This document shows, one piece after another, positions 43,508 to 51,095 of a stretch of 64,000 bases of DNA. Both the position numbers and the translations under genes were made by a program. Origin of the DNA: Escherichia coli (GTDB taxonomy: Bacteria > Pseudomonadota > Gammaproteobacteria > Enterobacterales > Enterobacteriaceae). Where the stretch lies: assembly GCF_041886205.1 (NCBI RefSeq), contig NZ_CP169029.1. One strand, given 5' to 3'. The notes under the pieces were generated by a model. The model made no database searches, had not been told where the DNA came from, and saw only the letters and a program-made list of their open reading frames with translations. Position 1 is the stretch's first letter; every line of letters starts with the position of its first letter.

Positions 43508-43534
43508 TAGAATAGTTATGCCTGACGTTAATAC

Positions 43535-43570
43535 AAACCCAGTCTATCAGACTGGGTTTGTTAGTATTTC
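43535..43570 (+). terminator. Rho-independent terminator after glcA
   Basis: aaacccagtctatcagactgggttt hairpin followed by a T-rich tail. Confidence 0.5.
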
Positions 43571-43919
43571 CGATATCAGACAGGGAAAATGCCTGGTCAG
43601 AAATGGGGCGTAATTCGGTTTTCTCAAAAAAGTAAAAAACGCCTTGTGGGCGGGGGATTATCTTACGACATGTAATTTGTTCCATACTTTTAAACTCCCC
43701 ATTGTTATGAAGTAAAGGCGTTATCTTTTTATCCGTTCAAACTTTAGCTCAAATTTGTAGCATGCAGATTCCGGTATTTTTCCTGATACCAGAAAAAAGT
43801 CACTGGAGGAAAGGTTGTGATAAAAATCACAAATTAAGTCAGGTTACTGGAGATAAAGTCTGCAACAGAGAATTATCGTAGTCTGTGTACCTCAACCAGT
43901 ATTTTAAAGGCTCTGTTAC

Positions 43920-45416
43920 ATGGAAGAAAACACAAGGCAGCGTACAGAAAATTATATTTCAGCAAAAAACCAGCATCCCGCCTGGATACTCCTTGCCACT
44001 CGCCGTGCTCCACTGGTATTGAGTTGCCTGAAAACGCTTTTTGAAAAATCACATGATGGCATTCCCCTTGAGGAAGCTATTCAGTCTCTTTCCAGTATTC
44101 TCATTGAGCATGTGAGTCAGGAACAGTATGACATTAATCAGGACAATCCATTTCTTCAGGCCAGTCGTGAACTGCGGGAGTGGATTAAACGCCGTTTAAT
44201 TGTCGAACGGGATGGCCGTATTTTTGCTACCGATGCGCTTGAGGTCGCGATTACGTTTGTAGAGTCTCTGGATAATCGTTTTATGACCTCTACGGCTTCC
44301 CGTTTGTCCACCGTTCAGCGAGAAATTGAAAACCTGGAAACACGGCTTAATCCTAACCCGGCAAACCGGGTTGCAACCTTACGTCGTCGTATTTCTGAAC
44401 TGGAACGCGAACTACAGGAGGCAGAAGCCGGGCATATTGAGGTGCTGGAAACGCACCAGGCGGTTGAGCATATTCGTGAGGTCTACAATTTAGCTTCCAG
44501 CCTGCGGGCTGACTTTCGTCGTGTTGAAGACTCCTGGCGTGAGGCTGACCGCGCTCTTCGCCAATCCATTATTGGTGAGCAATATCATCGCGGCGATATA
44601 GTAGAACGCCTGCTCAACGATCAGGACGCGCTGCTTAATACGCCGGAAGGAAGAGTTTTCGACAGCTTTCAGCAACAGCTCCGTCAATCTTCTGAACTTA
44701 AAGCGATGAGTGAACGATTACGTGTGATCCTTAGCCATCCTTCTGCTTCTGATGCGCTTAACCGTCTACAGCGTCACGATCTGCGCTGGCTGGTTAAACG
44801 TCTGGTCGATGAATCGCAAACTGTCCTCCAGGCTCGCGCCCGTAGCGAGCGTGATGTCCGTGGTTTCATGAAAACCGGTCTTGCTGCTGAACATCATCGT
44901 GTTGGTCATTTGCTTAATGAGTTTCTGAATCTGGCGTTAAAACTCGACTGGCAGCGCCAGATGATTCGTAAACAAGAGGTGCCGCTACCTGCCGTTGGTG
45001 TGGCGGTAACAGGCATCCCCGCTATTGAACGTTTACGTTTTAAAGAGGTGGATGATGAAGCAGAGCAGACGTTGGATCTCAGTAATCATGCGGCGGATTT
45101 AACGCAGATTGGCGATGATTTCTGGGATGCCTTCAATGGCCTCGATCGTGAGGTGTTGATTCAGCAGACGTTGCAGCTTCTTGCAAAAGAAAATCGCCCC
45201 GTTGGCCTGGCTGAACTGGCGGCGCTGTTACCCCCGGCTCACGATCTCGAAACATTCGCCGTCTGGATTGGTATGGCAAGAGAAGCGGGTATTGAGGTTA
45301 TTGATTCACAGCGTGAATTTGCAGAGCTTAGTGATGGGGAAGGTCGCCGCTGGCGATTTAATCTGCCCACCACCGGTCTGGAAAGTCAGGCATTAATGGA
45401 TATCGATTGGGAGTAA
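43920..45416 (+). CDS. jetA: Wadjet JetA (kleisin-like, MksF-like)
   Basis: 498 aa, largely helical and charged. The call rests on position and size in a four-gene set (about 500, 250, 1100 and 390 aa) with JetC and JetD signatures downstream. Confidence 0.75.
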   Translation: MEENTRQRTENYISAKNQHPAWILLATRRAPLVLSCLKTLFEKSHDGIPLEEAIQSLSSILIEHVSQEQYDINQDNPFLQASRELREWIKRRLIVERDGRIFATDALEVAITFVESLDNRFMTSTASRLSTVQREIENLETRLNPNPANRVATLRRRISELERELQEAEAGHIEVLETHQAVEHIREVYNLASSLRADFRRVEDSWREADRALRQSIIGEQYHRGDIVERLLNDQDALLNTPEGRVFDSFQQQLRQSSELKAMSERLRVILSHPSASDALNRLQRHDLRWLVKRLVDESQTVLQARARSERDVRGFMKTGLAAEHHRVGHLLNEFLNLALKLDWQRQMIRKQEVPLPAVGVAVTGIPAIERLRFKEVDDEAEQTLDLSNHAADLTQIGDDFWDAFNGLDREVLIQQTLQLLAKENRPVGLAELAALLPPAHDLETFAVWIGMAREAGIEVIDSQREFAELSDGEGRRWRFNLPTTGLESQALMDIDWE

Positions 45417-49455: not shown

Positions 49456-49456
49456 G

Positions 49457-50605
49457 ATGTATTCCCCAGATGAATTGCGTGAAAAGCTTGCCCGGCAGTG
49501 GGATAGCGCAAAACTTCGGGCTGAACGCTTACTGTCCCCCGGTAACTGGCCGCTCTGCCTGCCTATTGGTAAACCTTCCACGAAAATATTTGCAGAGCAG
49601 ACTCAGCGCGTTTTGCAGCACGTACAGCGATGGAGGCAAGTTGCGGTTGGGCACGTGGAATGGGAAGCGGTGAGTTATCGGGCAAGTGATACATCAGTAT
49701 TAATGCCGTTGCGCTGGATTCTGAATAGCCCTTCTGAGTGGATCAACGCCGCTGCGGATCCGGTTGTGAGCCGGGAATTTCGCTTGCTGGAAGGAATTAT
49801 TGAACAAGTTAATCCCATTTTTCACCCGCTGTTGGTAAAGCATCGCTCTCTCTGGCGGCACAAAGATCCGCAGGGCGTCATCAGCGCCGCCACGCTGGCC
49901 TGCCGATTAGAGCCGGGCTGCGCAAAAGGGCTGCCGTTAAGATTGCTTTCCGGGCAAGGAGTGGATACCAAATTTATCGAGAATAATATTTCGTTATTAA
50001 CCCGACTGTTAGACGTGCGGTTTTCAGGAGAAGCCAGCGAGCAGGGATTAACAACTTTTCTTGATGCTTTTGATGAGTCCAGTCACTGGGTTTTAGTTGT
50101 ACCATTATCACCCGGCTTACTTCCTTTTAAAAAATGCCGGGTAACAACGGCGGAACTGGCAGAAACAACATTACCTGCGTCGCAAGTACTGGTGGTTGAA
50201 AATGAGCAGTGTCTGCATCATCTTCCAGCATTATCTGACACTATCGCGATTTTAGGCTGTGGCCTGGACGTGCAATGGCTATCCAGTTCTGTTCTGGATG
50301 AAAAACGCGTTGCTTATTGGGGGGACATGGATAGCTGGGGATTACTGATGCTGGCGAGAGCCAGGCGCTGTCGTCCGACGCTTGATGCCCTGCTCATGAA
50401 CCGTGAGTTGTTTGAGCAGTATGCCAGTCATAGCGCCGTTCCAGAACCGGTCATAGCGAAGGAAGCTGTACCTGATGGCTTGCTTAACGAAGAGGCCGAT
50501 TTTTATCGCTACTTAACCCGTTTACCGTGTGGTCGTCTGGAGCAGGAGTTTTTGCCAGTGGGGATTGCGGAAGAGGTGCTTCTCAGGTGGGGAAAAGAGA
50601 GTTAA
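49457..50605 (+). CDS. jetD: Wadjet JetD (Toprim-domain nuclease, MksG-like)
   Basis: About 382 aa from the ATG at 49457, directly after the jetC stop. Toprim-like acidic motifs VVENEQ and WGDMDSWG in the C-terminal half. Confidence 0.8.
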   Translation: MYSPDELREKLARQWDSAKLRAERLLSPGNWPLCLPIGKPSTKIFAEQTQRVLQHVQRWRQVAVGHVEWEAVSYRASDTSVLMPLRWILNSPSEWINAAADPVVSREFRLLEGIIEQVNPIFHPLLVKHRSLWRHKDPQGVISAATLACRLEPGCAKGLPLRLLSGQGVDTKFIENNISLLTRLLDVRFSGEASEQGLTTFLDAFDESSHWVLVVPLSPGLLPFKKCRVTTAELAETTLPASQVLVVENEQCLHHLPALSDTIAILGCGLDVQWLSSSVLDEKRVAYWGDMDSWGLLMLARARRCRPTLDALLMNRELFEQYASHSAVPEPVIAKEAVPDGLLNEEADFYRYLTRLPCGRLEQEFLPVGIAEEVLLRWGKES

Positions 50606-51095
50606 AAAAGTCATGCTTGCTCTGGAAGGTTATTTACGCGGTATTTTGTAGTGGTTGTTGCGAAAGTCTGCGTTGATGGTCCTGATACCTTACCGGGTAG
50701 AGGGACTTTCCATCAGTCAGTTTAGATACTGTGGCAACTGTCGCCTTTAGGTGGACAAATGCATAAATTATTAAACTATTAAATTTCTTGTTTTCAGGCA
50801 GCAGAGAGAAGGTATATCAGAGGGTACTGAGGTGTATAAACGTCACGAACATCCGTGAAAAGGCGAAAAAAACCAGCCAATAGATAATGCTTTGCAATGG
50901 CCAGAAATCTACCGTAGCCAGAAAGTGAAAAAGCCCCGCTTTGCAGCGAGGCCTTATGAATAGTGGTGCCGGACTCGGAATCGAAGAATGCTTCTATCAT
51001 GTTGATATTATTTTATTTTGTTTGGTTTGGTGAAATATGTACCCTCTTTTGTACCCGCAGTCCCTTTTGATATCGAAAGGGAATCAAACTCGGGG

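Follow-up and report, generated by a model that had tools for sequence, protein, structure and literature searches.

Which mobile element does a defence operon belong to when it lies at the junction between core genes and a long run of accessory DNA? This question is raised by a 64,000-nucleotide (nt) stretch of Escherichia coli DNA (contig NZ_CP169029.1 of assembly GCF_041886205.1; hereafter the window), in which a Wadjet operon, jetABCD, follows the core gene glcA and is itself followed by a CP4-like block. The original prediction for this DNA held that core synteny ends at the glcA terminator and that everything beyond it is one large integrative island, with Wadjet as its distal cargo and the tRNA gene and integrase lying past 64 kb. 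Our analysis instead makes it likely that two independent accessory elements, i.e., a Wadjet segment and a CP4-like island, are stacked at a single tRNA gene, pheV. The predicted layout itself was borne out by the open reading frame (ORF) map and Pfam: the genes run from glcDEFGBA through jetABCD to a DUF4942 gene split by the insertion sequence (IS) ISSfl8, and on into the CP4-like block, which ends in Ag43 (Table 1). Likewise as expected, all genes to the right of glcA are accessory, and the 64-kb window contains no tRNA gene according to ARAGORN and no integrase according to tblastn with five island integrases. Base composition and GC skew, which had been proposed as a further check, gave no signal at any boundary; the jet region has 47-53% GC, the same as its surroundings.

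The evidence that separates the two elements is a 22-nt direct repeat at 50964-50985, between jetD and the DUF4942 gene. On the plus strand it reads TGGTGCCGGACTCGGAATCGAA, the reverse complement of the tRNA-Phe 3' end TTCGATTCCGAGTCCGGGCACCA minus one G. Because of this 1-nt deletion, the copy escaped a tRNA-Phe 3'-end search that tolerated up to three mismatches but no indels; it was recognised on inspection of the sequence and with an indel-tolerant search. The 358 nt from jetD to the repeat (50606-50963) are 100% identical in strain PT62, where they run from an IS1-truncated jetD into an intact pheV-yqgA-speC region with no island, and strain GF4-3 has glcA-jetABCD, a 356-nt spacer and an intact pheV, again with no island. 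The site is thus polymorphic for an empty state, in which GF4-3 and PT62 join the same left flank to an intact pheV, and the repeat is therefore the distal attachment (att) repeat of a pheV island that extends rightwards beyond the window. As it separates jetD from the DUF4942 gene, the Wadjet operon lies outside this island, on the chromosomal side of the junction. The expectation that the non-coding stretches beside the operon might hold a junction or repeats thus held for 50606-51095, with its 22-nt att repeat, and failed for 43571-43919, where none was detectable.

The distal repeats of CP4-like pheV islands all miss the same G, reading GGCACCA versus GGGCACCA in the tRNA (window 50964-50985; loci L001 11720-11742, L008 42000-42021, L007 8881-8902, L005 20269-20291 and L009 7871-7892), independent of whether the flank is of the jet or the yghD type. 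One possibility is that the G-less form comes from the att site of the islands themselves, strand exchange taking place 3' of it; alternatively, the missing G could be inherited from one old insertion.

Independent of the repeat, the two elements occur apart in E. coli. Strain ZYB39 carries window 50953-64000 at 99.7% identity and in one piece, ISSfl8 insertion included, but the left neighbour of its island is yghD with the full gsp cluster (the type II secretion system T2SS-beta), and there are no jet genes. Conversely, the whole jet cluster of GF4-3 has no island before pheV, and in other strains it is paired with other islands between jetD and pheV: a bacteriophage exclusion (BREX)-bearing island in CX12, an 18-kb island with its integrase beside pheV in wlxctx60, and an island with a ParDE end in JNEC-KY202. 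Strain W444, which retains only a jetA'-jetD fusion, has a different small island before pheV. The best match to the jet part of the window is wlxctx60, with a different island, and the best match to its island is ZYB39, with no jet.

These observations bear directly on the proposal of one large island reaching from an unseen tRNA gene and integrase to the glcA terminator. The accessory nature of every gene right of glcA and the lack of a tRNA gene or integrase in the window are what such an island would give, and in other genera jet genes do sit at the distal end of tRNA-Phe islands (see below). However, the att repeat lies between jetD and the CP4-like block; ZYB39 has this island end but no jet genes; and jet occurs without the island in GF4-3, as do a jetD remnant and the same flank in PT62. 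With jet also beside other islands in CX12, wlxctx60, JNEC-KY202 and W444, Wadjet cannot be regarded as cargo of the CP4-like island, and we consider a single island highly improbable.

If the Wadjet genes are outside the island, what are the limits of the segment to which they do belong? Core synteny ends at glcA, as predicted, but not at its terminator: homology with 4364 other glcA-bearing E. coli genomes stops at window 43497-43500 (matches end at query positions 398-401), inside the last three glcA codons, which are GTA AGT TAA in the window versus GTC TCG TAA in K-12. The hairpin at 43533-43561 is not present in K-12, which carries a different hairpin there; the latter was considered as a decayed tRNA repeat and dropped as not significant. 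On the right side, similarity to K-12 and ZYB39 returns at 50953, 11 nt past the tRNA end. The haplotype-specific segment is therefore 43501-50952, ~7.45 kb in length, and it stands in place of sslE(yghJ)-pppA-yghG-gsp/yghD, i.e., the sslE-T2SS-beta cluster.

Among 5426 complete E. coli genomes, the K-12-type glcA-sslE junction was found in 4078 and the glcA-jetA junction in 12, with any part of 43508-50900 matched in only 29. The whole jet cluster is present in 8 genomes, at 98.6-100% identity, and ~21 others hold remnants: a jetA'-jetD fusion (W444, MB53), an IS1-truncated jetD (PT62, LP5-1), a jetA stub adjoining IS3 (LHM10-1, CP52E), or a C-terminal jetD stub fused to type VI secretion system (T6SS) genes (~11 genomes). 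In these ~11 genomes, the genes joined to the jetD stub are tssG', tssJ, tssE and vasL (L053 3264-7598; L019 150-11134; L005 15861-20205), and in strain TB06052 tad-pilus and T6SS genes abut the jet-type flank. The glcA-pheV interval thus has alternative contents, namely sslE-T2SS-beta, Wadjet, or T6SS/tad, of which the Wadjet version is rare and decaying. The original prediction had named jet genes at this position in most E. coli, independent of the CP4-like genes, as the observation that would speak against it; the independence was found, and the prevalence was not (8/5426).

Such a distribution could also be obtained were the jet segment not mobile in E. coli at all, but one allele of a hypervariable interval swapped by homologous recombination via the glcA and pheV flanks. 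In keeping with this, all 29 of 29 carriers have the segment at the same locus, in copies that are 98.6-100% identical; GC content is the same as that of the host; no integrase and no clean left repeat are found in E. coli; and other alleles (sslE-T2SS-beta; tad/T6SS) occupy the same place. However, allele exchange does not explain the findings in other genera, where the module stands next to tRNA-Phe at either of two loci and is accompanied by repeats derived from the tRNA, and as a full account we find it distinctly unlikely. Entry as an island, followed by spread and loss within E. coli through recombination and deletion, is compatible with the allele-exchange view.

A JetD scan using one genome per species recovered the same operon in Pluralibacter, Erwinia sp. 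ErVv1, Cedecea colo, Klebsiella grimontii, Leclercia, Enterobacter, Mangrovibacter, Kosakonia and Kluyvera. The Wadjet proteins have 85-98% amino acid (aa) identity across genera, and in Pluralibacter, Erwinia, Cedecea, K. grimontii, Enterobacter, Kluyvera, Kosakonia and Mangrovibacter nt identity is 87-90% from window 43661 to ~50600, with similarity beginning at 43795 and 43864 in the least similar loci. Over nine genera, JetA is 92-98% and JetC 89-93% identical, while the flanking core proteins are only 60-85% identical; that the jet proteins are so much closer than their core neighbours points to horizontal transfer. In five genera, a tRNA-Phe gene with the orientation seen in E. coli follows jetD at a distance of 0.2-4 kb. 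The locus is that of pheV (yqgA/speC) in Kosakonia and Mangrovibacter, as in E. coli, and that of pheU (dicD/dsbD) in Erwinia, Leclercia and Kluyvera. Pluralibacter, Erwinia, Cedecea and K. grimontii each have, ~470-620 nt left of jetA, a 20-23-nt sequence copied from the tRNA-Phe 3' end. Both flanks, i.e., tRNA and left repeat, are seen in Erwinia, where they bound 10.3 kb and chromosomal genes of the ordinary kind follow beyond the repeat; in Pluralibacter, Cedecea and K. grimontii, the left repeat alone is seen. No integrase or integrase relic lies between jetD and tRNA-Phe, either in the window or in the five other genera. The genes found there are Schlafen/HATPase_c_4 in Erwinia and Leclercia, a shorter HATPase_c_4 in Mangrovibacter, and AbiEi/AbiEii in Kluyvera; the tRNA-proximal arm in E. 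coli has only the tRNA and a same-position terminator hairpin in common with the arms of the other genera's jet islands. The tRNA-Phe repeats left of jetA, together with the lack of an integrase before the tRNA, argue for a tRNA-Phe island of its own that is without an integrase, and by these comparisons the jet module appears to be cargo at the distal end of such islands. The predicted role of Wadjet as distal island cargo is accordingly right in kind, in that the operon takes the repeat-proximal end in other genera, and wrong as to the island, which is a smaller one than the CP4-like element.

Several of these loci have peculiarities of their own. Two tandem tRNA-Phe genes stand at the proximal end of the island in Erwinia sp. 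ErVv1 (L013 14154-14322). To the right of jetD in Cedecea colo (L014 11203-20330), the island goes on with a Schlafen/HATPase_c_4 gene, an ORF of 1397 aa whose NACHT match is weak and below threshold, and a gene of the Integrase_1 family; this locus looks like a larger multi-system defence island. A jetABCD ~80% identical to the enterobacterial type is found on a 39-kb scaffold (L020, NZ_SZPQ01000042.1) labelled Martelella alba, an alphaproteobacterium; this could reflect either long-range transfer or contamination.

The Kosakonia locus suggests yet another origin, namely an ancestral composite of the form glcA-(tad/T6SS cluster)-jetABCD-pheV, from which the window layout would arise by T6SS deletion. 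Kosakonia has the order tssE-vasL-jetABCD-tRNA-Phe-yqgA-speC; the ~11 E. coli genomes of the ECNB21-M121 type have tssE-vasL, a jetD C-terminal remnant and the same flank; this E. coli haplotype is syntenic with Kosakonia (K. pseudosacchari, with an intact jetABCD by pheV) at 72-85% nt identity; and in TB06052 and UTME-3 T6SS genes abut window 50696-50963. The arm upstream of jetA argues otherwise, since window 43661-43795 matches the repeat-bearing mini-island type and homology to Kosakonia starts at 43795, and the candidate relic repeat at 43508-43537 (see below) also fits a small island. We regard descent from such a composite as rather improbable.

Successive insertions at one tRNA gene stack elements, with the newest closest to the tRNA. 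In the two-element reading, the first element would be the type I Wadjet segment, which has no integrase and fills the whole glcA-pheV gap (43501-50952), and whose core (43661-50605) would move between enterobacterial genera as cargo of tRNA-Phe islands. The order of events would be that Wadjet stood beside pheV first, in the state still displayed by GF4-3. A P4-type tyrosine integrase would then have placed the CP4-like island into the pheV 3' end, pushing Wadjet away from the tRNA and leaving the 22-nt repeat at 50964-50985 as the seam of this later insertion. Such integrases recombine attP with the tRNA 3' end, so that the tRNA is regenerated and a repeat is left at the far end (PMC7545054). 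The original movement of the Wadjet module would likewise have been integrase-mediated, with an integrase that acted in trans or was lost afterwards; its left repeat would have decayed in E. coli, so that the module is probably now fixed in place there.

As for the operon itself, the four ORFs overlap or abut, all on the plus strand, with Pfam matches above curated cut-offs, and the encoded subunits are full-length, devoid of stop codons and 98-99.6% identical to JetABCD of GF4-3. JetC residues 1-1095 match JetC of PDB 8as8 end to end (2413 bits), and JetD residues 1-382 align to PDB 8q72. Judged by its sequence, the locus is a type I Wadjet system as defined by its four genes. For the GF4-3 orthologue, structures have been solved (PDB 8as8, 8bfn, 8q72) and activity reconstituted, revealing loop-extrusion-dependent sensing and cleavage, of the structural maintenance of chromosomes (SMC) type, of circular DNA smaller than ~100 kb (Liu et al. 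2022, bioRxiv 10.1101/2022.10.04.510915). The window and GF4-3 share both the operon order and the chromosomal locus between glcA and pheV; they differ in that the GF4-3 operon runs straight into pheV, whereas a large island intervenes in the window and a 22-nt tRNA copy remains. Of note for users of public annotation, the RefSeq Prokaryotic Genome Annotation Pipeline (PGAP) splits jetC into two calls, a 156-nt stub marked as a pseudogene and a 1347-nt gene apart from it, and ~1.8 kb is left without annotation. This holds for all jet-bearing genomes that were examined, GF4-3 among them (L001 6924-10211; L050 11661-14948; L008 43530-46817). The split looks like a systematic annotation artefact, as the 1095-codon ORF is unbroken and aligns with the solved JetC chain over its full length.

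These properties allow a more speculative proposal: the GF4-3-type Wadjet would be a cis-mobilizable, integrase-less tRNA-Phe island that passes from one enterobacterial genus to another with integrases borrowed from co-resident phe-tRNA islands, and stacking with a large island may help it to avoid self-cutting. As JetABCD destroys circles smaller than ~100 kb, an excised 7-10-kb jet circle would be its own target, while a composite of >100 kb would be spared. We hold this to be unlikely; if true, such hitchhiking would tie the size-sensing of Wadjet to the manner in which the system itself is mobilised. Cis-mobilizable elements (CIMEs) and the tandem accretion of integrated elements have reportedly been reviewed. 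The present locus resembles a CIME in that an integrase-less element, putatively att-flanked, lies next to an integrase-bearing one that uses the same att site, and in that the jet copy of Erwinia has both repeats and no integrase. It differs in that mobilisation of jet is hypothetical, the left repeat in the window is at best a decayed one, and both host clade and integrase family are different.

Several observations weigh against stacking by two simple insertions. (i) No integrase tied to the jet module was found in any genome examined, so its site-specific mobility is deduced from distribution. (ii) The positions of pheV and an integrase past 64 kb of the window's contig would follow from relatives: in each one examined they lie further right, as predicted for the window (wlxctx60: pheV-int). 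(iii) The left repeat is a weak candidate, a relic of 14-16 nt for which the comparison was chosen after seeing the other genera. Its TAGAATAGTTATGCCTGAC (43508-43526) has 16/19 matches to the Pluralibacter repeat region, a score reached by 3/500 shuffles, and 14/17 matches to the window's own right repeat, reached by 9/1000 shuffles; a second match, at 43553-43570, is collinear with the arm of other genera. An unbiased local alignment of the two non-coding stretches scored at the level of shuffled sequence and gave no repeat. (iv) The flank at 50804-50963 is 80-86% similar to the tRNA-proximal (integrase-side) arm of an island family with int and DUF927, found at pheV in JX21CE33 and NT1W22 and at pheU in ETEC6, and (v) in O157:H7 strain TR01 (L003 9001-9064), the 64 nt after pheV are identical to window 50900-50963 and are followed by an integrase gene.

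The last two points indicate that the history of this flank was more tangled than two simple insertions. Within it, the terminator hairpin at 50930-50955 (minus strand) adjoins the repeat and is of the type that follows pheV. Further left, the abiEi relic at 50687-50778 hints at additional cargo formerly present in the E. coli copy. This flank and the synteny of the T6SS-jetD' haplotype with Kosakonia allow for an older, larger composite island or for repeated overwriting at the site, and the conclusion that Wadjet and the CP4-like island are separate elements is unchanged by either.

Table 1. Features of the window from glcA rightwards, with positions counted from its first nucleotide.
Feature	Position	Strand	Basis or remark
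glcA (lactate-permease family), last core gene	41825-43507	+	Pfam Lactate_perm E = 4.5e-207
Candidate decayed distal att repeat of Wadjet island	43508-43537	-	TAGAATAGTTATGCCTGAC vs TAGAATAGTGGTGCCGGAC (Pluralibacter tRNA-Phe repeat)
Hairpin terminator 3' of glcA, 13-bp stem	43533-43561	+	Specific to jet-type segment
Conserved cross-genus Wadjet module (jetA upstream arm and jetABCD)	43661-50605	+	87-90% nt identity to other genera
jetA, kleisin-like, DUF3375	43920-45416	+	Pfam PF11855 E = 3e-106; 496/498 residues same as GF4-3
jetB, DUF4194	45422-46171	+	Pfam PF13835; 244/249 residues same as GF4-3
jetC, SMC-like ATPase, intact 1095-aa ORF	46168-49455	+	AAA_29 and SbcC_Walker_B domains
jetD, nuclease subunit, DUF3322 and JetD_C	49457-50605	+	PDB 8q72 JetD E = 2.9e-257
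Nucleotide relic, abiEi 5' end and upstream	50687-50778	-	83% over 93 nt to Kluyvera genomosp. 3 jet island
Flank following pheV in island-free jet strains	50804-50963	-	Includes tRNA terminator hairpin 50930-50955
22-nt direct repeat of tRNA-Phe 3' end, TTCGATTCCGAGTCCGG-CACCA, one G short	50964-50985	-	Sequence, indel-tolerant search, att views
Distal non-coding arm of pheV island	50986-51095	-	99.7% identical in ZYB39 from 50953 on
DUF4942 gene split by ISSfl8	51096-53025	-	Pfam; comparison with intact CX12 gene; ZYB39 annotation
ISSfl8 (IS110 family)	~51380-52738; transposase 51662-52666	-	Pfam PF01548 and PF02371
CP4-like distal module and cargo	53122-63685, continues past window	-	Pfam; ZYB39 annotation

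That defence systems occupy tRNA hotspots is already well described, and a tandem-island architecture is ordinary. Wadjet was found to prefer hotspot #37 in a survey of E. coli defence hotspots (Hochhauser et al. 2023, PMC10121019), and its main text makes no mention of pheV, yqgA or glcA. The window resembles the hotspots described there in that a defence system is carried by an accessory segment, is linked to a tRNA site and is found in few strains. Our literature search found no paper combining pheV, glcA and island, and the exact layout, as well as the link between jet and tRNA-Phe across genera, may be undescribed so far. The boundaries detailed here fix the native context of the reference locus for type I Wadjet, both structurally and biochemically. 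They also provide a worked example of how treating all DNA past the last core gene as one island can mislead when islands stack.

The second element, the large island of CP4-like/pathogenicity-island type right of the seam, is a conventional tenant of its site: pheV is a textbook island site at which Ag43 is common cargo (PMC7545054). Along with the E. coli pheV islands covered in that review (PAI V of 536, PAI-CFT073-pheV, LAA), it has an insertion at the pheV 3' end, a distal direct repeat and Ag43 cargo, the difference being that the window displays the distal end only and the integrase end is outside it. Window 50953-51095 matches ~1900 genomes, and ZYB39, the closest relative, has an island of more than 90 kb. 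The arrangement seen in wlxctx60 is yqgA-pheV-int-18 kb-DUF4942'-repeat-jetDCBA-glcA, with a P4-type integrase beside pheV. From 51096 to the window end, every gene of the island is on the minus strand, and the module comprises, in order, DUF957, DUF5983, cbtA, cbeA, DUF987, radC, an antirestriction gene, DUF932, DUF905, irmA, an 840-aa ORF and Ag43. The distal modules of CP4-44, CP4-6 and CP4-57 in K-12, which run yeeR/flu ... yeeS-yeeT-cbeA-cbtA-yeeW, share Ag43, DUF932, antirestriction, RadC, DUF987, CbeA, CbtA, DUF5983, DUF957 and DUF4942 in the same order. The window island differs from them in being anchored at pheV and in having its terminal DUF4942 gene broken by ISSfl8 and an internal deletion. 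ISSfl8, so named after the RefSeq annotation of ZYB39, has a DEDD transposase N-terminal domain and a Transposase_20 C-terminal domain, and its insertion falls between positions 12132 and 12135 of the intact CX12 DUF4942 gene. The same gene also lacks ~280 bp internally (window 52952-52960 versus the intact CX12 copy, L001 12348-12629). The 840-aa ORF (window 57854-60376, minus strand), located between irmA and Ag43, has no Pfam domain and is annotated as a hypothetical protein in ZYB39; its region is covered by matches in other best-matching island copies.

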